A DNA stretch of 64,000 nt from assembly GCA_040285855.1 (NCBI GenBank), contig JAUFOQ010000004.1, forward strand, positions 1,674,001-1,738,000, written 5' to 3'. The notes below the pieces were generated by a model that worked only from the letters and a program-made list of their open reading frames with translations, was not told the origin of the DNA and did not search any database. Below, piece by piece: positions 1-61,381 of the stretch. This DNA comes from Eukaryota sp. GEM-RC1. Lineage: Eukaryota. Every line of letters begins with the position of its first letter. Position 1 is the stretch's first letter. Both the position numbers and the translations under genes were made by a program.

Positions 1-1062
1 CCATTCGGTACTTACAGAAACATTGTGATATAACTTGCGTTTATTGTTCAACGAATGTAAGTACCAGGCGGAGTATTCATATGAAACTGACCGACCATCA
101 GCACTGAATATCTGGACTAAAGGTTCAATGATGATACCATGTCTAGGATCCCAAGAGTAGGTGGAAGGAAACCTATAAGTATCACCAGCTCTACTATCAT
201 ATAAGTCACCCAAAAACTGTTTTATGGCTTGAGGAGACGTGCCAGGAGGAACATTTTTTAGCAAGTAATGTCTTCCAGCAGGCATTCTATGACGCAAAGT
301 GGGATGCCAGGGAGCAAATTTGGCAAGATGCCACAAGTCGTAGTCAGTGATGGAGACACTCTGATCGTACGGACTTGCAAACGGGATGAGATCGTTGGGA
401 ACTGCATCTCTATGAGGTCTAGACACATAACCGGTTTGTTGTTCTACAGCTAGAGCTCTCTCAGTCATGGAAAGATTGGCTGTTTTTTGTTGTTGCTCCA
501 GAAGCTGTCGTTTTGCTTCTTCTGCCCTGGTCTTATGCTGAGCTAGGACTGTTTGAAGTTGCCTAAGGCTCTCTTCAACCTCCCTAGACAGAGGAACTGA
601 AGGATCAACGTTATCTTTATTTAATAAACTACTAACTAACAAGGAAGAATCAGAAAAATGATGAGAGGGCAAAGATGTTAGCTGAACTACAGACGAAGTA
701 GTATTACCCACAACATTGTCTCCCGGAGTACCACTGGTATCTGAAGAGACAACGGTAACTCCGTATTTCTCCAGTACCTTCTTGATTCCAAGAGGATCTT
801 CCTGTTCTGGTCCAATGGATGAATCCAAAGGACCAGGGTTGCCGCCAGACTCCGAAGAGCCCAAGGGTCTTATACCAGTCGTTTCGCCGGCTTCCGAAGA
901 AGCCAAGGAACTTCCATCAACGTTTGAAGATGGGCTCTCGTGTGAGGAGAGACTCTCGGGTGAGGAGAGTTCGGACACAAAGTCCTCTTCATCTACTGAG
1001 GATTCAGTAGGCACTTCGATCGGGGTGGCAGAGCTCTTCGATACTCTGGTCTTTTGACAGAC
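1..1062 (-). CDS. Uncharacterised ORF open to the window edge (~350 codons); Ser/Glu-rich N-terminus, short coiled coil, then globular region; possibly mobile-element encoded
   Basis: Manual minus-strand translation is stop-free from ~1062 to base 1 (KTRVSKSSATPIEVP...EESLRQLQTVLAQHKTRAEEAKRQLLEQQQ...WHPTLRHRMPAGRHYLL...). It is missing from the ORF track because no stop is in the window; the start is unclear. Confidence 0.5.
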
Positions 1063-1223
1063 CTACTTGGCTGTCTGCGGTTAGTAACTCCTTTCTTAGG
1101 AGCAGCTGTAGTAAGATTCCTCTTTTTACCATGAGGATAATAATTATTAATACCTAAAGGTGCAAAGGGGAAGGTAAAGGGTGTTTATAAATCAAATTAT
1201 ACGTACTAGTAACACTTCACTAA

Positions 1224-3282
1224 CACCTGTGGCTAACATCTGAAGTTCATAACTTTAAAATTCCAAATAATCGTCCTATATCAACAATTGACACAGACCT
1301 TCGTGATTTTGTTGCTGGAGCAGGAATCCATACTGCCAATTCAAACTACACTGGATATAAGCACTGTGTTACTGATACATTTGGCACATGTCATTTACCA
1401 GAACTTGATTTTGATCATATCAACCGAGCTTTTGAATACACTACTCAGTATGAAATGTGGCCTGCGTTTGAACTAAATATTCGTCCCAATTATGAGATGT
1501 ACATTAAAAGATTTATCAATACAGTAATGGGTAAGAAAGAGTTTGAAAGAAGAATGAAGAAGAAACGTAATTTAGTTTTAGGTCCAGAACTTGCAGGACT
1601 AACAGGACGTGAAGCTCAAAAGTTCACTAGTTACTTCAGATTTCGCTTAAAGATATTGAAAGATCAAATTTTGTATCGACCTAGAGATGAAGCCCTACAG
1701 TATATTAATTCTTTTAACTCTGCCACTCACCCTGAGAATCTTAAGTTTATTGATGAAGTTTCCAAAGTTTTTAATGCTGATTTCAGTATGTTAATATTTG
1801 AACAGATCAATTCCCTAATGACTGATAAAATTCCAGAATTACTTCAAAGATTTAACATCATATTTCCTGCTACAATCACTACTAAGGACAATGAAACTGT
1901 AGACGTTCATAATTTACTTTACACAGTTCAGGAGTATCCACTTCATTTTCTAAGAAATTCTCTTCAAATCTCAGATTACTTGGAATCCAAGGGTGCTAAG
2001 TTGTATAATGTAATTCCTCTAAGTTTAGAGAATACTCCTTGTTTTTTCCCAATAGACACTAGAACTCTTTGGGGACTGGCTAAGCACTGTTTTGGATACA
2101 AGAATAATGACAAGAAGATTGGTCCTCTACATTCAAAAGTGACTAATTACATGTCTGCTGATCAGATTAAAAACATGACACATTCTCAACAACAAGATTA
2201 CTGGAAAAGATGGTTTAACTGTGATGACAGAAGTTTTCACAAAGCCAATTTTGAATTCAACAACTATGCTGTAACTGATGGAATTTCTATTTGTTTTCAA
2301 TTTGTTAGAAAGGATTTGAAAGGAATGAAATGTAAACCTGATTCAAGTAAAGCTTCAGTAAAAGTACAATATTTCAATGAATATGATAGGTCTGACTTTA
2401 TTTCTAAACAAATGGTTTATGTGGACATTGGAAAGAGAGATATGCTACAACTTGCATCTAAATCAAATAGGGAAATTCAAAATCCTCTAAAGAAATACAA
2501 CTTCTTACGATTGACGCATGCTGAGTGGTCTAGAGTTTCAAGAAAGCATAAAAGAATCCACCAGTACCTTGTCAGAAAGAGATCTGGTACTAGTCCCTCA
2601 GGTCAGACGAAGACAATTGAGGAATGGAACACTTGGTTAGGTGAAGATCAGAACTCTAAGACAGTCAACTACAATAAATTTAGAGAATTTATGCTGAATA
2701 AATGCATTCACTACAATGCAACTAAAGACTTCTATGCTTTGCATATATGGAGGATTCACAAAATCCAAAATCATGTCCATAAGCAAAAGACAGAGTCTAA
2801 ATTGGTTAACAGCATTGTAAAAACGTTCGGTAGTCGTGACAAAATCGTACTATGTATTGGTGATTTAGGTCAGAAGCCAATGTCCAACTTAAAACACAGT
2901 CCACCATCCAGAACTAAGACTTGGACTTCATTCTTTCAGAGAAATGGTTTTTTAACAGTGTTGAATGATGAGAGAAACACTTCGTCCAAGTGTCCAGAAT
3001 GTCATGAAGATGTTTTTGAAACTTCTATTGAGGTTGTTAACCCAAAGCCCAAATCAAGAGAGAAGAGAGAATGGATTCATCCACATGGCTTACTAGAGTG
3101 TAAGAGTGAACATTGTCTGGGAGAAGTAAAGAATCGATTGAAAGGGGGAAAAGAAAGGGCATACAGTGCCCAGTCAAATGTATTGGAACCGAAACAAGAT
3201 GACTTGTTTGAACATGATGAACATGTTCGAACACTGGATGAGTGGAAGTGATGAGAGAGTAGAGTATCTGAGTAGAAATTAG
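1224..3282 (+). CDS. Fanzor1-like (TnpB/Cas12 superfamily) RuvC nuclease; one frameshift at 3141-3152
   Basis: Motifs in expected order: TDGISICFQF; RuvC-I VYVDIGKRD (D 2424-2426); IVLCIGD; RuvC-II plus Zn finger NDERNTSSKCPEC (E 2970-2972); HGLLECKSEHC. After dropping one base in AAAGGGGGAAAA the frame continues YWNRNKMTCLNMM...ERVEYLSRN* (TAG 3280-3282). Frame is open from 1224; first ATG at 1455. Confidence 0.88.
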
Positions 3283-3400
3283 CTTTATTTTTGTTATCTG
3301 GCCGGTGAAACCCGGCCATATTTGGTTAAGTCCATATATAAGCATTGAGGATTGAAGCCAAATCCATACTTCTCTCTACTATCTCTACCTGATGTGAGAA
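3283..3400 (+). ncRNA. Candidate Fanzor omegaRNA scaffold (ends unknown)
   Basis: GC-rich stem TGGCCGG(3299-3305)/CCGGCCA(3312-3318) closing TGAAAC, then a second stem ATTTGGTTAAGTCC(3320-3333)/GGATTGAAGCCAAAT(3349-3363), directly 3' of the restored Fanzor stop. Confidence 0.5.
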
Positions 3401-3809
3401 CTGCAGTATAAGACTAAATGGTATAAGTGACTTGTGGGCAGAGGAGCAGTGAATGATGAAGAATCTACAGTAGATAGGTGATAAACAGAAGAAATACAAT
3501 TATTAAGTTGCTTTTTCCCTTCACACGACTATAATCCACCAGAGTACAACTGGGTCATCAAACCGGTAAAGACAAGCTTGAACCGTTAGCTTTCTCCAGG
3601 GTTCAATTGGGAATTAACGGTTGTAAGACACGTTTAACTCACTTGCAAAAAGATATCTGTGGCCGTAACGTAAACGCTGTTTGAACTCAATCCATCTTGT
3701 GGATGAAGCATCAGACTAGGATGATTTGAAATCTCCAATTTTCTCTTACCTTCTCCCTTCAGTGATCTCACCGGATCACTATTATTTGACATTAATAAGC
3801 TATTAGCTG

Positions 3810-4355
3810 ATGTCTGAATCTGTTGAGCGTTTTCGAAGATTCACTCCCAGTGGGAGAGTTATCAAAACTGGAAACATGCAAAGGCTTACTCTCAAAGAAA
3901 GACCAACACCCCAAACTCAAACGAAACCTCCAACCCTACAAAAACCTGACACTGCATTAATGAAACAAACTCTTGGCTTTTCTTTCGATGATTCTGAATC
4001 CGAAAACGACAGTTCTGTTCCCATATCATCTGCATCTCTAGTCAGCGCTTATTCATTCGACACCAGTGACGATGACGATGAAGAAGAACAAGATCTCCTT
4101 CTACAAGAACTGGAAAAGATCCGTAAAGAAAGAGAAGTACAAAAGTCCCTTGATGATTCTGTCTCATACCATTTGATTCCTTCATCTGATACTCAAAGCT
4201 CTGTTCTGAAGGAAGAAGCCTCGATGGATTGGTATGAGGATTCATTGTTTGGTGTTACGCCTCAAGAACCTCCAACAAAGAAGTCCAAGGTTCATATGAG
4301 TGATGTTCTGAAAACTGAGTTTCATAAAAACTTTCTACGGCAGTTTATCAAGTAA
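3810..4355 (+). CDS. CWC15: Spliceosome protein Cwc15/Cwf15
   Basis: Acidic tract followed by LLQELEKIRKER, WYEDSLF, and C-terminal DVLKTEFHKNFLRQFIK matching the Cwf15 C-terminus. Confidence 0.8.
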   Translation: MSESVERFRRFTPSGRVIKTGNMQRLTLKERPTPQTQTKPPTLQKPDTALMKQTLGFSFDDSESENDSSVPISSASLVSAYSFDTSDDDDEEEQDLLLQELEKIRKEREVQKSLDDSVSYHLIPSSDTQSSVLKEEASMDWYEDSLFGVTPQEPPTKKSKVHMSDVLKTEFHKNFLRQFIK

Positions 4356-7553: not shown

Positions 7554-7790
7554 TTAGTTGAAACGATTATCTACATCTAATGTTTCTAATAACTCCTCAT
7601 CCACTTCTACTGGTTCCTTGTTCAGTACATCTCTCAACACCGTTTCAGTAAAGAAGTGTTGATTGAACAGTAGGAAGAGCTGCAACTCAAGTGAATCACA
7701 AGACATACCATGACGGAGATACCCTAAAAGTAGCCGAGCTCGTGAAAAAAGTCTTTCAACAATATTGGAAGTGGTAAATCCACCCAACAC
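7554..7790 (-). pseudogene. hAT transposase C-terminal dimerisation-domain fragment
   Basis: TSNIVERLFSRARLLLGYLRHGMSCDSLELQLFL fits hAT S..ER.FS. CAATG-type repeats at ~7340-7430 resemble subterminal repeats. Confidence 0.7.
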
Positions 7791-8167
7791 CTTTTGGTGA
7801 AATGGGAAAGAGAGACGCCCATATACTAGCAACAAGGTTCTCAATCTACTTTAGCAGACTAATTGACCAGGAACATGGCGATCGATGATCACTGCAAAGA
7901 ACAGGATAGCGGACCCGAAACTCAAACAAGAAGTTTTCATCTTAAGATAAGAAAGCTCCGTCACGAAGATAAAGCAATGACCTGGCAACGAAGTGAAGAA
8001 GACAAAGTATTTTTTGTAAGGGAAGACAAAACAAGAAAGAACCAGAAGGGTCACCCTGTTTAACACTACGAGAAGTAAAAAAACAGTGTGTTCATGAAAT
8101 AACAAAGAATTATGAGAACCATACAATGTTTCCAAATTAAAAATCTGGACCAATTCTAATTCTGACC

Positions 8168-10388: not shown

Positions 10389-11413
10389 GTGCATTTTATC
10401 AATAAGTTGATAAAATTTCAGTATTGTCTTACTAAAAAGTGTGCATCAATAGCAAATTCTCAAGGATATGAACACGATCAACACAACTCGGTTCTACTTC
10501 TGGATAACAAATAATTTCCGAAAAAACATACATCTCTCGTTGTCTTTCTTCCAGAAACCTCCTCATATGTGTTTCTTTCTTACATCTCAGCTATTCCCTT
10601 CTTCAAAGTACATTATACGGTACCCAAAAAGGTAACCTTCCTACAAAATTGCTCTTCTATAAAAAAAAGCTTTGGTCTTTATGGAACAAAAACACTAAGA
10701 TGAATACAAATTCTAGAACTCAATATCATTAAAGCAACAATCATTGCCATTAAAACTCAAATCAGCTTTTTCTTCCAAAAAAAACTACTGAGAGCTAATG
10801 AAGGTGCTTTTGAAATTATAATACATGTATGAATTGTTTGAAATATTGTAAAAACAATACGATTCAACCAAAACTTGAAATCAAATTTTTGTTCATACAT
10901 TTCTTGATAACTTTCTCAAAATCAGAGAGAAAACAAAGAGCATCTTTACCAAGTCGACCATAAATTGAAATTGTAAAAGGACATACTACCCTTCTATTGA
11001 CTCTCTTTAACCCAAGTCTTTCTAGGAGCAGTCGACTCATACTCAGTTATTTCTTAGAATTTGTGTGGGGTGCAATCAGAAGTGACTGATCGTGATGAAC
11101 TGGACAAGCTTCCCTACGTAGTTTTTAGAAGTATTCAAGATTAGAAATTTGTCGCTTTTTTTCTTTTCCTTTTAGCATAGGTTGATGATAACTGTTTTCT
11201 ATGTGACCAGAAATATTCTCCAATGTTGATGTTCTTCACAGTGGTTGAAAGGGACTACTCTGAGAGACAACTTAGATGTAGGACTGTCCAAGTTCCGTTT
11301 CCGGTTCTAACTGGAACTATTTATTTTGGAACCACACAACTGGAACTACTGAACCGATGAACAATTTGCCAGACCACATGTATGACTAAAATTGACTTTT
11401 CTTGAAAACTCTT

Positions 11414-12754
11414 ATGACTCGTTTCATTTTCTTCCTTATCGGATGTATCATTCTCACATCTGCCGTAGATGTTTCAGTTATGCTTCCTCTTGATATGGTC
11501 GATTTCAATGGGAATCTTGCATACTCTGACAAGGTCATTCGCAACTGGTTTTATGACTTAAGAAATGCTTCCGTTGCAGGTGTTATGACTGATGTCTGGC
11601 ATGGTCTTACTGAACCACAACCCCACAAATACCACTTTGATCCTTACATCAAGCTCATCACCATTGCACGAGAAACTGGTTTAAAAGTTCAACTTGTTGC
11701 TTCATTCCATCGCTGTGGTGGTAACGTCGGAGACACATGTGACATTCCACTCCCCAAGTGGATCCTAGACGTAGGAAAATCAAACTCCAACATCTTCTAC
11801 ACTGATAAACACGGTCATCCAGACGAAGAATACCTTTCCCTCGGTGTTGACAATGAACGCCTCTTTGGTTCCCCTCCTCGTTCTCCCGTTGAAATCTACT
11901 CCGATTGGGTCCATGCTCTAGCTAAGGCCATCCGTCCCTTCATTCCTACCACCGTTGATGAGTTCCAAATAGGCCTGGGTCCTTGTGGAGAACTCCGGTA
12001 TCCTTCCTACCAGTTGGATCGATGGGGTTTCTGTGGGGTTGGAGAGTTCCAATGTTGGGATAAGTACATGCTTGAATCTCTCAAGAAAGCCGCTGATGCA
12101 TATGGTAAACCCTGGTACCTCCCCCCAGGTGATGCTGGCGAGTACAACTCACGACCTGATGATACTGGATTCTTTAGAACTAACGGAGGTTATGCGTCTG
12201 AATATGGTAACTTCTTTTTGAAGTGGTATTCTGGACAACTTATGGATCATTTCGATAGAGTTTTGGGTGCTATCAGAAGTAAGTTAGGTTCTCTCGGACT
12301 CTCCGATTTCCCGTTGGCTGTAAAGATTGCTGGTATTCATTGGCACTACAACCACGCTAGTCACGCGGCAGAGTTAACTGCTGGGTATTTCAATACTAAT
12401 GGAGTTGACGGATATGCTAAGATGATGCCATTGTTTAAGAAACATAACGTTGCTTTTGACTTTACTTGTCTGGAAATGAGAGATTGGGAGCAGCCTGGTG
12501 AGTGTAATTGTTCCCCTTGGAGTTTAGTTGGTCAGACTATTAAAGGAGCAAAGATCAATGGGTTGACTTTCTCTGGAGAAAACGCGATTGCTGGATTCGA
12601 GCAGAATAAGTTTGATACAATGATTGAGAATGTTAAGAGATATGGGAAGGGTTCTGTCAAGCAGATTACTTTCTTGAGACTTGGAGATTCAATGTTTTAT
12701 CCTGATAATTATAAGCGTATGAAGTCTTGGGTTGAGAGGATTGCTGAGTATTAG
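11414..12754 (+). CDS. Secreted beta-amylase (GH14)
   Basis: Signal peptide; VMLPLD, SFHRCGGNVGD, GLGPCGELRYPSY, KIAGIHWHY, HAAELTAGY, FTCLEM, GENA motifs. Confidence 0.95.
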   Translation: MTRFIFFLIGCIILTSAVDVSVMLPLDMVDFNGNLAYSDKVIRNWFYDLRNASVAGVMTDVWHGLTEPQPHKYHFDPYIKLITIARETGLKVQLVASFHRCGGNVGDTCDIPLPKWILDVGKSNSNIFYTDKHGHPDEEYLSLGVDNERLFGSPPRSPVEIYSDWVHALAKAIRPFIPTTVDEFQIGLGPCGELRYPSYQLDRWGFCGVGEFQCWDKYMLESLKKAADAYGKPWYLPPGDAGEYNSRPDDTGFFRTNGGYASEYGNFFLKWYSGQLMDHFDRVLGAIRSKLGSLGLSDFPLAVKIAGIHWHYNHASHAAELTAGYFNTNGVDGYAKMMPLFKKHNVAFDFTCLEMRDWEQPGECNCSPWSLVGQTIKGAKINGLTFSGENAIAGFEQNKFDTMIENVKRYGKGSVKQITFLRLGDSMFYPDNYKRMKSWVERIAEY

Positions 12755-13547
12755 TTTATTGTTTCTTTTATTTTCTAATGTAAATATATATGTTTCGTCA
12801 AAAGAGTGTTGTTGATTTCATTTCTGCGAAAACACTACGACAGAGGTAATCAGTTTCCTAATTTGCTTTTAGTTTCACGTGTTACATAATGAACAATGAA
12901 TGTTAGATTTTTCAGATCATCATTTTAGTATACTTTAGTGAAAAATTAACGAACAGTTTAAACCAAATTAACGAACGTCGATACTGGTTCACAAAGTTTG
13001 AATGACACCAAATGATAACCACTTTTTGCAATTTTAATGCATTAATATAAAGAAGAAGAAGAGTCGTCGTTTAGGTTTATTCACTACATCGGCGACAATA
13101 ATTAGTCTCACTGAGACTAAATACGAAGTGAGACTATATGTGGTAGAGGACAATTAGTCTCACAAAAATATTCTTACCAACATACATATTAAGACCAATA
13201 AAATGATTGGTTCTAATTCTACATTAAGAAACGGGGTTTATGATCAGTCAGTGAAATAAATGCATTTGCAGAAGTAAATAACTAACAGACACTAAATAAA
13301 GTATCTAAACTATGATCCTTCTGTCCATCACCGAACAACTTACCTAAAATTGAATTAAAATATCTGTGCATTGAACGAAACAACGCAAACGTTAACCTAC
13401 TCAACCAAAAATTTTCATTGAAAACTTTACCATACTCAGAACACAATTTACCAAAGGAAGTTAAAAATCCTTGTGCAGCTGGTCCAATATTACCGTATAT
13501 CGACATCGCAAAAGGTTGAAACACAAAAGAATTGTACCTGTCAACAT

Positions 13548-15578
13548 GGAAAAACACCGTATTTCATCATAATTCAATTTATAAAACCTAAAATCATCAT
13601 CTTCATCCCTTGAACTTTACTTAATGAAAAACACACTTTCTGCATTGGCTAATGCATTCTATCCTGGAAACATGCAACTTCAAGTGGGTGAGATTCTTGG
13701 AAAGAATCAGCTTGATGCTTCGACCCTTCTCCACGTCTACTCTATAAAGACAGATAAAGAAATATTCTGCAGTCAGTCGAACAATAGAAGACTAGATTTT
13801 GCTTGCAGTGCCGAAGAATGCTCCTTTCATGTCCATTGCACTTCCGATGGGGAGGAACATCCATTTACACTTAAAACCTTGAGAGGTCACCATCCATTCT
13901 GCAAGGCACTGCCAAAACAAAAAGTCACCGAACCTGTACTTGGTAGACTTTTAAGGGATCTCCTTCGACACGAAAAGCTCTCTCCTACTAAAATCTTCCA
14001 CGATCTTGATCGGCAAATGTCCAAAAGCTCCGTAGCAAGAGCCTGTCAAAAAGCACAATCCCTGTTCTTAGGGACATTGAAATCCTCATATGCATTTGTG
14101 GGTCCTTGGTGCAAAGAGCTTATTCAGAAAAATCCAGGCTCTGTAGCCGTGAGTACTGTCACTGAGAATGTCTTTACTTCGTGTTTTGTGGCACTTAAGG
14201 CAAGTATTGATGGATATCCATTTACGAAGCCATTAATTGCATTAGACGGGACCCATATTCGTACCTCTTTCAAAGGTGTTTTGTTGATCGCGGTAAGTGT
14301 AGATGCTATGGGTCATATTTTTCCTTTGTGCTATGGTGTATATGGCTCCGAAACTAAAGAAGCATGGACCCTTTTTTTAAGTTCCATGAAGGATATTTAC
14401 GATGTTAGTGGACGAATCTTCATTTCTGATCGCCAAAAAGGTCTTATTCCAACGTTAAAAGAATTGTTTCCGGAAAATCAGCACTGTCATTGTGTTTATC
14501 ATTTAGTACAAAACTACAAAACGAATGGTGGAAAAGGATCTGGACAGACAGTTCCTTTTTTATGGCAGGCTGCACGCACTCCAATCAAAGAAGACTTTGA
14601 AGAACTCTTGCAAAAGATACAGGAACATTGTCCTCAGGGGTATAACTATCTCCACACTAGTTCAGAATTTGAAGCTTGGGCGGAAAGTTGCATGACTGTT
14701 GCACGTTATGGACATATTACTTCAAACGTATGTGAAAGTATGAATGCTTCACTTTTGAAAGAGCGCATGTATCCTGTCACACAGTTACTGGAAGAAATCC
14801 GGAAGAAAATGGGGGAATGGTTTGTTGTAAGACGTTCAGAAGCAGCGGAAATGCAAGGAAGACAAGTTGATGTAGTGGAAGTGTTTGTTCAGACGCTAAT
14901 TGCGAAGACTCACACAATGCAAAGCACTGTAGTTGACAAAGAAGAAAAATTGTTTGAAGTATTGAGTGATGGAAAGCAGTATCTCGTCAATATCAGCTTG
15001 AAAGAGTGTAGATGTAAGCATTGGAGAGATGGGTTACCATGTGCTCATGCTATGAAGGTTATACGTGATTTCCACTTCAACATGGAAGACTTTATTGAGT
15101 TAGTGTACAGCACTGAGTATTATAGAAGAACGTACGCAATGAGACTCTTCTCACTCGATGAAATCCAAGGTGATGGTACCACCTTACCTCCTGAAAACAA
15201 TCGTGCTCCTGGAAGACCTTCCAACAACGCAAGAAGAAGAAAGTTTTTGAGCGGAAGAGGAAACAGTTGGGAACATCAAAGACGCGACCTGGAAAACTTC
15301 CAAGAGCTGATGATGAACTCATGGGGAAAGGTCACCAAATGGAAGTAGTTGAACGAGTTAATCCTGTGGAAGGAAAGGAATCCCGTCGGTGTTCTCTTTG
15401 TAGGCAGTTGGGACATAATGTCAGAACATGTCCAGAGAAGGAATAAATATATATAGTTCTTGTGTATACTTTTATTGGGCAATGAAATCAATGTATTGAT
15501 GAGAACCGGAACGAGAGAAAATGTGTTGATGAAATCTGGGACAGAAGATGAAAATTTGATGAAATCCGGGATGCACCC
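13548..15578 (+). mobile_element. Mutator-like (MULE) DNA transposon, apparently complete
   Basis: 9-bp TSD TGTCAACAT (13539-13547, 15579-15587). Imperfect TIRs GGAAAAACACCGTATTTCATCA / GGGTGCATCCCGGATTTCATCA. Confidence 0.88.
13624..15348 (+). CDS. MULE transposase with SWIM zinc finger
   Basis: LDGTH, ISDRQKGL, CVYH, TSNVCESMN (DDE with CxxH); SWIM CRC...GLPCAH. Confidence 0.92.
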   Translation: MKNTLSALANAFYPGNMQLQVGEILGKNQLDASTLLHVYSIKTDKEIFCSQSNNRRLDFACSAEECSFHVHCTSDGEEHPFTLKTLRGHHPFCKALPKQKVTEPVLGRLLRDLLRHEKLSPTKIFHDLDRQMSKSSVARACQKAQSLFLGTLKSSYAFVGPWCKELIQKNPGSVAVSTVTENVFTSCFVALKASIDGYPFTKPLIALDGTHIRTSFKGVLLIAVSVDAMGHIFPLCYGVYGSETKEAWTLFLSSMKDIYDVSGRIFISDRQKGLIPTLKELFPENQHCHCVYHLVQNYKTNGGKGSGQTVPFLWQAARTPIKEDFEELLQKIQEHCPQGYNYLHTSSEFEAWAESCMTVARYGHITSNVCESMNASLLKERMYPVTQLLEEIRKKMGEWFVVRRSEAAEMQGRQVDVVEVFVQTLIAKTHTMQSTVVDKEEKLFEVLSDGKQYLVNISLKECRCKHWRDGLPCAHAMKVIRDFHFNMEDFIELVYSTEYYRRTYAMRLFSLDEIQGDGTTLPPENNRAPGRPSNNARRRKFLSGRGNSWEHQRRDLENFQELMMNSWGKVTKWK

Positions 15579-16989
15579 TGTCAACATTCAATTTTTTAAT
15601 TAAGTGACAGTACTTTGTATTTTTTCCTTTATTCTACATTATAAATCATCTTCCTTCTATAATTTCTTCGTCCTGGAAACACCAGTGAGTGATGATGAGA
15701 AATAGGGAAAAATGTCATATCAGTGGAAGTACAATGTTGAACCGATCAATTTGTTACAACACACAATATATATGCTACTAGTTGAGAATTTGAACTACAT
15801 TGTACATCCAATTTTCAAAAATGAATGTTATTATACTACACTTATGATGTCAAGTAGATACCTCCATATTATCTGGATTCTCATTTTCCTCCCATTCTAG
15901 CAATTCTTCATTCTTGTATCTCCTCTATTGAAGTAAAGTCTATTCTTGTTGATAATTGTCTGCAAATCAACAGATATATGATTCTCATGAAAATGTCATG
16001 TTTCACACAAATTTGTGAACAATAAAATGGATACAATATCGAACATTACTACAAATGAGAGCGTTAATTCTCCTTCTGTTACATACACATAAGTAAAGCG
16101 ACTTTTATTGGTCCCAAATCTGTCAATGTACTTAAACTGAACATCATTTTTGAACGTATTTGGAAAAATTGATTACCATTAATAGTCTCACTGAGACTAA
16201 ATGTCAACTGAGACTAATTATTGTCGCCGGTGTAGTGGTTTGCTAAATAATTCAATCTGTGTTTGTGATAACCGATCTACAGCCACATTTCGTCACGTTG
16301 TTAGTTGCAAGAAATTTTTGCAATTTCGATCTGTTCTACATAACGCTGTCCGTAACGTTACTTATGAAATGTTCAAATCCTACAATTATAGTTGTAAAAT
16401 TGAACCTCTTCTGAAACATTATAGTGACAATACCGTGTTTGATTCTCGGCGTGGTGACTTAATTGCTCCTTTTCTGGATTCATCTCAAGTTTTGGTTGAT
16501 TTTACTACAGTTGACCCGTTTGCAAAAGTCTACCAAGACTCCATATTGAATGATTCGAATGGTTATCTGGAAAAGGCTGAACAGCGAAAGTGTTCAAATT
16601 ATGCGGATGCTTTGCAGAAGCTTAATGAAAATCTATATTGCAAGTTTTCATATGTTCCGTTTGCAATTTCATTTTTGGATAATATTGGTCTAGCCGGTTT
16701 AAAGTTTTTGAGTGATTTTAGTCTTTTATGTCGTTCTAATGGCAATGTGTTTAATAGCGCTGTATGGATTAATCGAATTATGTTCGCTCTTTATAGAAGC
16801 ATTCCCAAATATTTATGTTCCATTTATTCGAAGTTGTATAGGGACAATTCTCGTGTTGATGTGGTGAATTTAACTTCTTTCGTTTTCTGAATTAGTATGT
16901 ATGAATTTACAGTTGCAAATGAAATCTTATAATATAAAGAAGTGTGAATTTGGTGGACACACTTTCTCGTTAATTACAAAGAGCTTGTT

Positions 16990-21883: not shown

Positions 21884-25509
<3,626 letters not shown>

Positions 25510-25867
25510 TCAGGCGGAGAAGAGAGGAAGGCAAAAATGGCATTTCACATCTCCTCTCTCAAAGATTCTTGCTTGGTGGAATTGTGTTATCGTAGCAGGT
25601 AGAGGTATAATTTCATCACACTCTCTTTGTCTCCTTTCATTTTAACATGGTTTTGATGGATTATGAACAACGGAACCGTATTGAATGATCAATATTAATT
25701 TGCCAACAACATGTTAACACCTTCGTACGAATGTTATTTTACGTTCTCTAATATAAGTGAACGAATTTGTGTCAAATACTACTCATGATTATAGAAGCAT
25801 TTCTAAGAAATTAAAAACACAATTGATTTACTAATAAAGAACGAAATCTCTATTCAAGTCAATAGAT

Positions 25868-26992: not shown

Positions 26993-28296
26993 ATGGATGC
27001 CATTAATGAGACCCTACTTGATCGTACACCGACGCAGGGTGCTTCTCTGTCCTCGACCGTCATAAATCTAAGGTATATACGCTCTCCTGTTTTCTAACTT
27101 TAGTAATTGCATCATTGGAGCTGGTGTCCTTACCTTGGCTCAAGGACTTCGCAATGCTGGCCTAGCACTGGGTGTCACTTTAATGTTTCTCGTCTGCTCA
27201 TTTTCTCTCATCTCTTTTGCAATGCTTTCAACCTGCTGTGACCGAACTGGCCGATTTTCCTATAAAGGTGTTGCCAAGAAGATTTTCGGTAACAAGTTTG
27301 GAGTTGTAGTTGAAGTCTTAGTTCTGCTTTACACTGCCTCGTTATCAATTTCTTACGTTGTTCTACTCGGAGATTTCCTACCCAACATCAGTCACTACGT
27401 TTTCCCTGATACTTGGCATCCCTACTTCTTTGACCGCACTTACCTCATCATTGGATTGTCAATCTTGATTCTCCTACCGTTATCATGTCTTCCAAAGCTC
27501 GATGCTCTTCGTTTTACCTCTGCTGCTGCCATCGCCTGTGTTGTTTACCTGACTTTTGTCGTCGTCTATCGCTTCTTTACTGACTCTTTTCCTATACCAG
27601 TACCAGATACTCGTGGACCTATTGTATACTTCAACTGGTCTCACACAATGTTCCTCGCCATCCCACTAATGGCTGTATCCTTCACTGCTCATTAGTTTGT
27701 CCAATTGCCATATTCCTCACCACAGCAACGTCCCTGATTTATATAAAGAACTAGACAAACGATCTCCAGGCAAGTTCTCCAAAGCGGCACTCATCACGTG
27801 TACATTCTGCTTCTTCCTCTATGTAATGGTATCTGTGTCTGGATATTTGTCCTTCAGAGGAAACACTTCTGGTGATATTCTAAACAATTATGATCATAAT
27901 GACGTGCTTGCAATCATTGCTAGAGTTGGATTGACCCTAACCCTATCGTTTTCCTTTCCTCTCGTCTGTTTCTCTATTCGGTCTTCCATTGAAGCCATTA
28001 CTTTAGATGAACCTGAGCCTAATTGGATACGTCAAGTGATTCTTGCCACTGTCATCACAGTCGTCTCAGTAACTATAGCTATACTTGAAGAACGAATTGA
28101 AGTTGTGTTGAGTCTAGGTGGATCCAGTGTTGGGCTTATGATTGGATTTACTTTTCCCGCTCTTTTTTATGTTAAGGTTGGAATCCTACCTGGAGAAAAG
28201 TTTGCTGGATTAAAGAAGTTTGCTGGAGTTTTCATTTGTGTTATGGGTGTTGTTCTAACTGGCTTTTGTACTTGGGTGTCTGCTCGTCAGCTTTAG
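26993..28296 (+). CDS. Amino-acid transporter (AAAP / SLC38-like)
   Basis: 31-nt introns 27073-27103 and 27695-27725 restore NLSNCIIGAGVLTL and SFTAHYNVPDLY. Many TM helices; LSFRGNTSGDILNNY. Confidence 0.9.
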
Positions 28297-57429: not shown

Positions 57430-58805
57430 TAGGGATGGGCAAACTCCAACTCGACTTCACTCCACTCGTAGAAATTTTAGAACTCCAACTCGACTTCACT
57501 CCAAACAAAAATTTTGCAAGTGAACTTCACTCCAACTTCACTTCATTCCAAACTCAAGTCACTTGAACACTTCACTCCACTTCTGAATTTTATTTCTACT
57601 CCGAATGCTTGTAAACAAGAAAGGAATCTTCGTGTTCAATATCGACCGTCTTCCTCCAGCAACCGACACAGACCATGGGTGTTGCGGATGATTTCATCGA
57701 TGAAGGATAAGTTGGTCACTTATCATGATCACATCTATAACTTCACAACATATGCTGCTATGCTTCTTGATCCTCGTTTTAAGACGAGATTGATGCCATT
57801 GAAGTTGAAGACTGAAAACTTCAGAGAGCAGTTCAAAGAATATTTTATTTCACATCAACCCTCTCTTGATATTGAATCAGTAGAAGTCCAACCTGCAGAA
57901 CCTGCAATCGTTGAAGGTGAAGTCGTTGATATTGAACCCGTACCCGAATGCTCTCTCCATTTGGCTGTTTCACATCTGGTTGATCAACATGAGGAGCCGA
58001 TTGGCGAACTTGACTCATTTGAACTAGATCCATTGGAACCCCTTACTTCTAATCCTTTAATATTTTGGAAACACCGAACAGATAAGTACCCTGTTCTTTC
58101 TTCCATAGCTCGTCAGTTTCTTGCTGTACAGGTATCATCAGTTGCATCATAACGATGTTTTTCTGCAAGTGGACGTACGCTCAGCAAAACAAGAAATCGT
58201 CTCTCTGATGAAGATTTGGAAGTACTTCTTTGTCTTAAATCAAAAAAAAACGGGGTTTATGATCAGTCAGTGAAATAAATGCATTTGCAGAAGTTATTAA
58301 CTAACAGACACTAACTAAAGTATCTAAACTATGATCCTTCTGTCCATCACTGAACAACTTACCTAAAATTGAATTAAAATATCTGTGCATTGAACGAAAC
58401 AACGCAAACGTTAACCTACTCAACCAAAAATTTTCATTGAAAACTTTACCATACTCAGAACACAATTTACCAAAGGAAGTTCTTAAATCATGGTATGCAA
58501 TGAATCTAAACGTCCCTTCATAGCCTTAGTTTAATAAATAAGATAAACAACTTGTTAGACTTTCCTTTATTTGTTTACCTTGTTTCTAGTGACAAAGCAT
58601 ATAGGTGTTACTCTACAGCGGTAAAACTATTGTACACGATGTACAGCTTAGTCAAAAATACTGATTAAATCACAAGTTTCACTCCAACTCGACTTACTCG
58701 TAAATTTTGACAGAACTCCAACTCGACTCCCACTCGTAGAAATTTGGAGTGAAGTGGAGTTTGGAGTCTACTCGTAGAACTCGAGTGGAGTTTTGCCCAA
58801 CTCTA
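57430..58805 (+). mobile_element. Decayed hAT element with transposase C-terminal remnant
   Basis: TIRs TAGGGATGGGCAAA / TAGAGTTGGGCAAA; ACTCCA repeats; LLDPRFK, PLIFWK, YPVLSSIARQFLAVQVSSVAS*RCFS. No matching TSD seen. Confidence 0.8.
58243..58480 (-). mobile_element. 5'-truncated RLE-LINE copy inserted in the hAT remnant
   Basis: Near-identical to ~13230-13462. 10-bp TSD TCTTAAATCA (58233-58242, 58481-58490); removal restores LLCLKSWY. Confidence 0.9.
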
Positions 58806-59777: not shown

Positions 59778-61381
59778 TCATGTAAGCTTACGAGGCCTTC
59801 CACGAGGACGTTTGATCTGCGGAAGTTCAAATGCAGATGGATTTCGTCGTTTGCACCTAGGGGTCTTCCACGAGTTTTTTTTGGGTCTAGGAGCCGCAGG
59901 GACCGTTGAGACTTCCTGAATAAGTTGTTGTAGAGACCTGTTGACGAAATCAGTCTGTTCTTGTGATAAGGAATCAGCTGTGAGCAACTCAAAGGCAGAT
60001 AGAGTAGGAGCTTGTGGAGGTGTTGTATCAGGAACAGGGACGACTTCAACAGCATGGTGGATGCGCCAGTGGAAATGGAAGAGGTCTTCTGAAAGTGGTT
60101 GGTTGCGCTGAAGGAAATGAGCGATGCATTGAGATGAAGGTATGCCATAAGAAGAAGATAAGCGTTTATCAGGGAAGAGAGTTGGAGTCATAGAGGAGAC
60201 GGATTAATTCTTCGGCAATCAGAATTGTCGCAAACTTAGGGACATGCTGAACGATGGGTTCGATGAAGTGAGAGATGGGTTCGGGGTACACTAAATTGAT
60301 GTCAGCATCTCGTGCAACCTGTATTCTATGTTCAGCTTCCATATTCTTCCACATCTTCATGATCTTCTCCGTAATATCCAGTAAATTACCTGTTGAGACT
60401 TTAAGATAAGTTTTGAGATCACTGTGAATAGATTCCACTCTAGAAGTAGCTCTTTGTAACAGATTGAATGTGTCGCCTAAATTACAAGCTAAAAATTTGT
60501 TACCGTAGTCAAACATGAGACTATCTACATATGTTAGTAGAGAGGGAAAGGCAGAAAACTGCTCATATATCACACCGCTTGCTGTCTGCATAGCTGCTTC
60601 TTCAGTTGAATAGCATAAATTGCGCCATAGGGAGCGAAAAGCTTCCTCCATGTCATTATCACGTACGATTTTCCGCAATTTGGTTTCAACGTTCTTATTA
60701 ATGTGCCAAAGGCACAAATAGTGTTTCACTCTCGGTCAGTGATAATTGTTTCTGTGAAATTAAGAGCAGGAAACGTAGATTTCAGTTGATCTAAAGGCCA
60801 TGTGTAATCATCATCTGTCTCTCCCGACAGTAAAATGAAAGCAATTGGAAAAGATTTCATGTAGGAAGAGATGCCCATTACAACCAAAAGGGGTAGTCCA
60901 TACTTGTTCGTTTTGTATGTACAATCCATCATTAAAACATATGGATTGCTGTTCACCATACTTTCGACTGGCTTATAAGTCATAAACCAATTTCGAAGTG
61001 AGCCATCGTCTTCATTCAACAAGGTCTTGACTTCAATGTCTGGCAAACTTCTGATTTGCTCTAGTAGAGCCTGGAAGTTGGGCAGCACATTCTTTGGTTT
61101 TTCAAGAGAGCAGTCTTCATATTAGCTATATCCTGTTTTCTAAGAGGGCAATTGGGCTCTAGTTGAAGCAGTCTATCAAATATAACTTTCGGTTCGCAAT
61201 TAGCACGTAGAAGAGTTTCGATAGTTTCTTGATAGATTTCTTTGAAGTAACTCCGGAAACTTCTACTGGCGGACATGCAGGAGTAAGGTTCGTGGTTGTG
61301 ACAAACATATTGACCAACCACACACCAACCTTCAGCAGTTTTTGTAACTCTAATGGAGAAGGGACATTCGGTTTTGCGGGT
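59778..61381 (-). pseudogene. Frameshifted FAR1/MULE-type transposase
   Basis: RKTECPF...W...HNH finger, MDCTYKTNKYGLPL, ITDRE, CLWHI, TSRVESIHSDLK, degenerate SWIM, AT-hook RPRGRPRK; spread over four frames. Confidence 0.85.

Follow-up and report, generated by a model that had tools for sequence, protein, structure and literature searches.

The closest described systems to the gene analysed here are two Fanzor1 proteins, SpuFz1 of Spizellomyces punctatus and PpFz1 of Parasitella parasitica. In Fanzor1 the catalytic aspartate of RuvC-I lies almost exclusively within a DPG motif, and the motif that Bao and Jurka gave for the group is reportedly a C4 zinc finger followed by RD. Its hallmarks are a TDG motif and an alternative RuvC-II glutamate six residues before the zinc finger (PMC10711439), and its members are usually 600-700 aa long (PMC11423790). 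GtFz1 of Guillardia theta is active with a non-canonical D-E-N triad, and the D606N mutant of SpuFz1 is more active than the wild type (PMC11423790). The CRe-1/2/3 Fanzor1 proteins of Chlamydomonas belong to non-autonomous Helitron2 elements, which are multi-copy, carry no transposase of their own, are often 5'-truncated and have a 3' hairpin; they are intron-rich, and no fusion is described for them (PMC3627910).

The window (the whole 64-kb stretch of DNA that was analysed) holds a reading frame of this kind on the forward strand from 1224 to 3251, with 675 codons from stop to stop. We suggest, with a probability of about 0.62, that it is a truncated and likely dead member of a multi-copy Fanzor1 family. 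Full-length members of that family would be exonuclease-fused RNA-guided cutters that likely trim the cut end. The direct basis of this reading is the match to Fanzor1 in sequence and fold, the loss of the 5' part in this copy, the fusion with its fixed spacing, the exonuclease and D-E-N motifs, and the 2A-like and Ulp1-like modules of the relatives. The copy comprises the following features.

1233-3282 (+): 5'-truncated Fanzor1 coding sequence, 91% identical over 690 columns to residues 189-878 of the relative P0014; tblastn start at 1233
2274-2282 (+): TDG motif of the WED domain, read as a motif; TNG in one subfamily
2424-2426 (+): RuvC-I catalytic Asp in VDIG, with DIG instead of the usual DPG; aligns to the DPxxRD segment of SpuFz1 and PpFz1
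2970-3002 (+): RuvC-II alternative Glu (2970), then CxxC (CPEC, 2991-3002); E-RNTSSK-C spans 2970-2993
3099-3116 (+): second Cys pair of the zinc finger, CKSEHC, read as a motif
3141-3159 (+): purine tract, one base longer than in the in-frame relatives (G5 at 3144-3148), where the +1 shift lies
3181-3282 (+): out-of-frame C-terminus with RuvC-III WNRN, the Asn of the catalytic position at 3193-3195, and the stop

The motifs named in a preliminary description of this DNA (TDG, the RuvC-I aspartate, a GD segment, the RuvC-II glutamate with CxxC, and a second cysteine pair) could all be located within 1224-3251, with the GD segment at 2859 and the alternative glutamate six residues ahead of the zinc finger. 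The same description placed the true C-terminus in the +1 frame and counted 608 aa from the ATG at 1455, or about 685 codons in all, and translation agrees: the read-through with X at the G run has 685 residues and a single stop, and 608 aa follow by arithmetic from ATG 1455. The +1 frame at 3142-3279 reads KGEKKGHTVPSQMYWNRNKMTCLNM...ERVEYLSRN, a peptide that includes MYWNRNKMTCLNM, and its stop is at 3280-3282. Over 46 aa this tail (YWNRN...YLSRN) has 91% identity to the C-terminal end of P0014, which is in frame, a match that places it beyond chance.

Pfam did not recognise the family on the window protein (best match TNB, E 0.24). The profile and structure comparison proposed in the preliminary description was run on P0014, which is identical to the window read-through at 627 of 690 positions (91%). 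Searched against solved structures with phmmer, P0014 matches SpuFz1 (E 8e-16) and PpFz1 (7e-15) only. Foldseek with its predicted model (pLDDT 85.2, pTM 0.82) places seven Fanzor1 structures first (E 7e-26 to 6e-18), the next match being at 6e-5. VIA fold alignment to SpuFz1 and PpFz1 gives Z 23.5-25.6 and rmsd 3.5-4.6 with 577-597 residues aligned; the Fanzor1 chains span Z 19.7-25.6, the next non-Fanzor1 structure scores Z 12, and TnpB and Fanzor2 score 8.0. We conclude that the window gene is a Fanzor1, as judged from the sequence and modelled fold of its near-identical relative, and both the original assignment and the claim of a divergent lineage are upheld. The likeness to SpuFz1 and PpFz1 extends over the whole WED/REC/RuvC/TNB fold, the TDG motif, the alternative glutamate and the C4 finger. 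In contrast, identity to them is only about 20%, the family has an asparagine at RuvC-III and DIG or DLG in two subfamilies (the window copy has DIG and P0024 has DLG, while three further subfamily members keep DPG), and it adds N-terminal exonuclease, 2A and protease modules. The C4 finger of the window copy is followed by RN, not RD, and so are those of 24 of the 25 relatives.

The frameshift corresponds to one extra G in the window copy, since the relative P0209 reads LKGEKKGHT in frame with one G fewer. Among the seven close copies that reach the site, only P0014 and P0209 are in frame at the G tract, and four different readings occur; in the window's own subtype, none of the four copies is in frame. 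P0009 and P0016 share the out-of-frame reading of the window copy, P0013 and P0017 are broken in other ways, and the same additional G is present in both subtypes. Judging from the sequence, we consider that the extra base is probably an assembly error, on three grounds: the shared G crosses two subtypes, the essential SMC3 gene (21884-25510, reverse strand) is shifted twice by -1, at a short T run and a short A run, and 19 overlapping frame changes occur over 24 kb in one long gene of the window (-1 in 11 cases and +1 in eight; some may be introns or decay). The preliminary description had likened the Fanzor shift to homopolymer shifts in SMC3; two such shifts are indeed there, although both go in the opposite direction (-1) to that in the Fanzor (+1). 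That the extra G arose instead by true slippage, in a copy or subfamily undergoing decay, the family and the truncation being as we read them, is the less probable account, though by no means a negligible one. The excess of out-of-frame copies (five of seven, and all four of the window's subtype), the identical reading in three of them and the private changes of the window copy at conserved sites all speak for mutation. Against it, the common reading spans two subtypes, two copies break otherwise within the same tract, SMC3 shows similar shifts, and the assemblies of the relatives (Skoliomonas) were built from R9.4/R9.5 nanopore reads corrected with short Illumina reads (PMC11316075).

Rescue of the frame by a short GT-AG intron or by programmed frameshifting is scarcely credible, and we reject it. 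The window does have short introns, in keeping with the tiny-intron protist of the preliminary description (that of SMC3, at 25364-25415, is 52 nt long), and two of ten candidate introns (3126-3144, 19 nt, and 3126-3153, 28 nt) would restore the frame and retain the zinc finger. Both, however, are nearly all purine and end in AAG, whereas the SMC3 introns are pyrimidine-rich and end in CAG; moreover, P0014 and P0209 code straight across the site, and the spacing in P0004 is unchanged. The G_GGA_AAA heptamer would direct a -1 shift, but +1 would be required here.

Whatever the cause of the frameshift, the window copy is not intact, because it lacks WED-I and the helices with which REC begins. 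Its homology to the relatives starts only at about 1233-1237, which corresponds to P0014 residue 189 (ATG 1455 corresponds to residue 263). The structural match of P0014 to the Fanzor core runs from residue 116, equivalent to SpuFz1 residue 18, to the end. About 73 core residues (P0014 116-188) are thus missing, or about 147 (116-262) if translation began at ATG 1455, and on the P0014 model they form the WED-I strand and first REC helices. Family-protein sequence from upstream of the junction has no match anywhere in the 64-kb window (tblastn, E<=0.1), and the exonuclease, 2A and protease modules of the full-length relatives are likewise absent from this copy. The preliminary description held that the gene may be intact. 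A stand-alone Fanzor1 of 608-685 aa, masked only by sequencing error, would explain the 1.9-kb open frame, the presence of all catalytic positions, the pair of 3' hairpins and a length typical of Fanzor1 (600-700 aa; PMC11423790). However, the copy has no complete WED-I/REC N-terminus in one frame with RuvC-III, the lost segment is aligned from SpuFz1 residue 18 onwards, and SpuFz1 H21, T22, K25 and R96 touch guide, target and TAM (PMC10432273). Fold mapping of the missing N-terminus, with no upstream piece in the window, largely refutes an intact copy, and we give it hardly any chance.

Of 578 sites compared, 16 carry substitutions private to the window copy, seven of them at sites shared with the relative of 50% identity (7 and 1, respectively, for P0014; other copies have 4 to 28, over 209-584 sites). 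Such substitutions at conserved sites fit decay, and the window copy is very likely dead as a protein gene. The 5' loss may reflect either truncation on insertion or cutting by the left-hand repeat.

A search with residues 220-675 of the window protein found two proteins among 2385 candidates, one from Eukaryota sp. GEM-RC1 (90% identity) and one from TZLM1-RC (50%), which we take to be Skoliomonas litria. Their clusters, which are spread over several contigs, have 18 members (the window's own protein is one of the 15 listed) and 11 members, so that the collection of genomic paralogues proposed at the outset revealed a multi-copy family. A profile search of 1.84 billion representatives (E<=0.001) gave 1116 matches, of which the best 150 were analysed; the ten top matches looked up all belong to GEM-RC1, TZLM1-RC or TZLM3-RCL. 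Skoliomonas sp. GEM-RC, sp. TZLM3-RCL and S. litria are metamonads from soda lakes (PMC11316075). In a midpoint-rooted tree, from which 12 of 126 rows had been dropped as too short, the skoliomonad rows occupy one side of a branch with an SH-aLRT of only 84, and their sister group is not resolved. Pattern searches for related DNA loci gave 83 matches in viral contigs and 242 in metagenome contigs, none of which was confirmed. Our literature search found no paper naming both Fanzor and metamonad.

In the full-length relatives from three skoliomonads, which are proteins of about 960 aa or more, the Fanzor part follows a fused PolB-type DEDDy 3'-5' exonuclease domain, as identified from sequence. 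The exonuclease profile PF03104 exceeds its cut-off in four of 14 proteins in one scan and in 11 of 14 in another, and the acidic motifs Exo I DxE, Exo II NxxxFD and Exo III YxxxD occur in all ten aligned exonuclease regions, one of which has DLD for the FD-type Exo II and one a shortened Exo III. The Exo III tyrosine and the basic residue of WED-I lie 29 aa apart in 23 of the 24 proteins and 28 aa apart in the remaining one; the set comprises six groups that share less than 50% identity and carries three species labels. On account of this fixed spacing across 24 models we reject a gene-model artefact. With the predicted model of P0183 (1096 aa, pLDDT 78.8), Foldseek returns Fanzor1 first, followed by Pol delta and the HSV-1 polymerase (E 5e-7 and 6e-6); in a viral library, the Fanzor-sized matches and the polymerases are separate proteins. 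The domain shares the Exo I/II/III motifs and fold of the proofreading exonuclease of family B DNA polymerases (PF03104), but no polymerase domain comes after it, the Fanzor WED-I strand beginning 29 residues past the Exo III tyrosine. P, piggyBac and some LTR elements have DEDD accessories with comparable motifs and fold. The preliminary description recognised the Fanzor1 part correctly and missed this fusion, the 2A and protease modules ahead of it, the late start of the homology and the RuvC-III asparagine.

An exonuclease profile, biased to skoliomonad sequences and applied to the best 150 of the 1116 matches, recognised nine, of which seven are skoliomonad by look-up and two are near-copies of skoliomonad proteins; the fusion may occur outside skoliomonads. 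We found no natural exonuclease-Fanzor fusion described, in a literature scope that stopped short of most surveys' supplements, subscription papers and Repbase, so prior notice is possible. The word exonuclease is absent from the main texts of PMC10711439, PMC13565253 and PMC10530073, and fused or fusion from that of PMC10432273, with related terms absent from nine of its supplementary files; parts of PMC6338049, PMC11071296 and PMC12846837 served as further comparison.

Upstream of the exonuclease lie additional modules. A 2A-like motif is present in ten proteins, six with the canonical D(V/I)ExNPGP and four with His for Glu, and is missing from the window copy. The order is 2A-protease-2A-linker-exonuclease in P0030 plus P0027 (two separate models), 2A-protease-exonuclease in P0051 and P0185, and 2A-linker-exonuclease in P0044, P0193, P0194 and P0031. 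The protease of P0051, P0185 and P0027/P0030 has Ulp1-like His and Cys motifs and a Pfam Ulp1 match below the cut-off (18.6 against 20.7 bits), from which we describe it as Ulp1-like. The relatives' N-termini come from automatic gene prediction, and ahead of the 2A motif they may be incorrect. In RNA viruses and APE-type non-LTR retrotransposons, the 2A or StopGo sequence D(V/I)ExNPGP is found near the N-terminus of mobile-element proteins (PMC3708506); here, by contrast, it stands ahead of protease, exonuclease and Fanzor in models with no reverse transcriptase, and skipping is a prediction. P0182 (2027 aa) has a DEAH-box helicase ahead of the exonuclease-Fanzor in one gene model; it appears in one of the four members of that cluster, and we do not accept it as part of the element.

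The RuvC-III position is Asn in the window copy and in 24 of the 25 relatives, while the 124 other matches among the best 150 of 1116 have Asp in 91, Asn in three and Cys in one, with 29 unparsed. GtFz1 shares the D-E-N triad (its structure matches the P0014 fold with Z 19.7), although it is more distant than SpuFz1 and PpFz1 and no fused exonuclease is reported there in the part of PMC11423790 concerned. By analogy with active GtFz1 and SpuFz1 D606N, the clade-wide asparagine suggests an active variant instead of decay.

Downstream of the stop codon, the window copy has a candidate guide-RNA region.

3286-3364 (+): candidate omegaRNA scaffold, with a predicted stem-loop (3299-3318) and long stem (3320-3363)
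3365-3379 (+): candidate guide taken from flanking DNA, placed after the second stem by analogy with SpuFz1 and PpFz1

The stem at 3299-3318 is predicted to be GC-rich with 7 bp. The fold of 3286-3365, whose boundaries were chosen after the hairpin had been seen, has -25.4 kcal/mol (z -3.46, 0 of 200 shuffles); equally stable folds occur in four of 399 window tiles, and the minus strand is weaker (z -2.38). The predicted fold resembles the two-stem 3' RNA layout of SpuFz1 and PpFz1, and we regard it as a candidate omegaRNA. A search of the window found the hairpin nowhere else, and its pattern gave no hit in metagenome contigs; the candidate guide has no close match in the window, the best having three mismatches in 15. 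Terminal repeats within 900-4000 do not rise above chance, and we found no convincing terminal inverted repeats around this copy. Between the junctions, direct repeats reach only 6/7 or 7/8 matches, and the 5' end of the element is missing. Two candidate target-site duplications are weak and were not accepted: TGGCTAA/TGGTTAA (1230/3323), which lies within the predicted second stem, and ACTTCACT/ACTTCTCT (1214/3368). In contrast to the CRe elements, which as Helitron2 are marked by ATIRs, a 5' hairpin, a RepHel partner and a variable TSD, no TSD, ATIR or RepHel partner was identified at this copy.

The surroundings of the copy contain other repeats.

1-1155 (-): belongs to a different multi-copy family and lies head to head with the point of truncation; 8 clusters, 13 sequences, 56-97% identity
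13585-15446 (+) and 60169-61381 (-): two MULE transposase remnants (PF10551)
57481-58152 (+): hAT remnant (PF05699)
7554-7850 (-): second hAT-like fragment, recognised by eye

All sequences of the 1-1155 family are labelled GEM-RC1 and have no Pfam family; their terminal segment is presumably chromodomain-like, and membership of the element is not established. Compared with P0200, this frame is itself shifted by one base, at an A run near 1055. The MULE and hAT remnants lie several kb from the Fanzor copy and are a possible source of transposase in trans. Two related short frames flank the MULE remnant (13282-13563, reverse; 16201-16890, forward, with no Pfam match for the latter), and we take both to resemble the C-terminal nuclease region of non-LTR retrotransposons. 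The window also has a beta-amylase-like gene that appears intact by eye (11396-12754, forward), a gene resembling amino-acid transporters with a likely GT-AG intron of 31 nt (27670-27700, forward, three-frame view), and a gene of about 25 kb (30613-55811, reverse, 23 listed frames) whose repetitive, beta-rich product has laminin-G domains and would be secreted or lie at the surface. Sequence like that of this last gene precedes the first 2A in both P0030 and P0031, as though genes of this type were targets for insertion of the elements.

We propose the following scheme for the full-length members. Ribosome skipping at the 2A motif would free an exonuclease-Fanzor with a basic, NLS-like linker, which would load an omegaRNA from the 3' end of the element, with its guide from flanking DNA. 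RuvC would cut the matching (empty) site, and the exonuclease beside the WED domain may then degrade the freed single-stranded 3' end of the displaced strand, a substrate that is our guess from fold and position. A break trimmed in this way would not simply be re-ligated, and templated repair from the element-bearing copy would restore the element; restorative homing has been proposed for OMEGA systems (PMC13565253). Transposase would come from an unseen part of the element or from another element. The window copy cannot make the protein, but its intact 3' end could still supply omegaRNA to full-length copies.

The exonuclease need not be of benefit at the cut, since engineered exonuclease fusions reduced the activity of MmeFz2 and SpuFz1 (PMC12923547, PMC13434818), which argues against a simple boost. 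The fused exonuclease might instead act elsewhere, trimming the omegaRNA 3' end to guide length or processing a transposition intermediate of the element. Besides the failure of such fusions to help cutting in engineered Fanzors, this would suit Fanzor guides, which are 14-15 nt ends of longer transcripts (PMC13565253), and the DEDDh nucleases known as accessories of P and piggyBac elements (PMC3627910). However, the domain matches DNA-specific proofreading domains of family B polymerases, and other Fanzor1 proteins mature their guides without such a fused domain; we regard a substrate of this kind as unlikely. More improbable still is a transposase-free, self-spreading class of element, in which one StopGo polyprotein would yield an exonuclease-Fanzor1 able to cut and resect DNA and to have the element copied to new sites, with 5'-truncated copies left behind. 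No transposase domain was found in the family protein models scanned. Were the idea true, the 3' ends of 5'-truncated copies such as that in the window would add new guides.

On the reading that we prefer, a dead copy of a family of exonuclease-fused cutters, the skoliomonad family extends Fanzors to Metamonada. The fusion has been kept by evolution, with a fixed junction and intact active-site motifs, in at least six divergent groups and three species. Fanzors are under study as compact eukaryotic editors, in which engineered addition of an exonuclease lowered activity (PMC12923547, PMC13434818). Natural copies that are in frame (P0024, P0033 and P0183) make the fate of DNA ends after a Fanzor cut, and the persistence of the element, directly testable.
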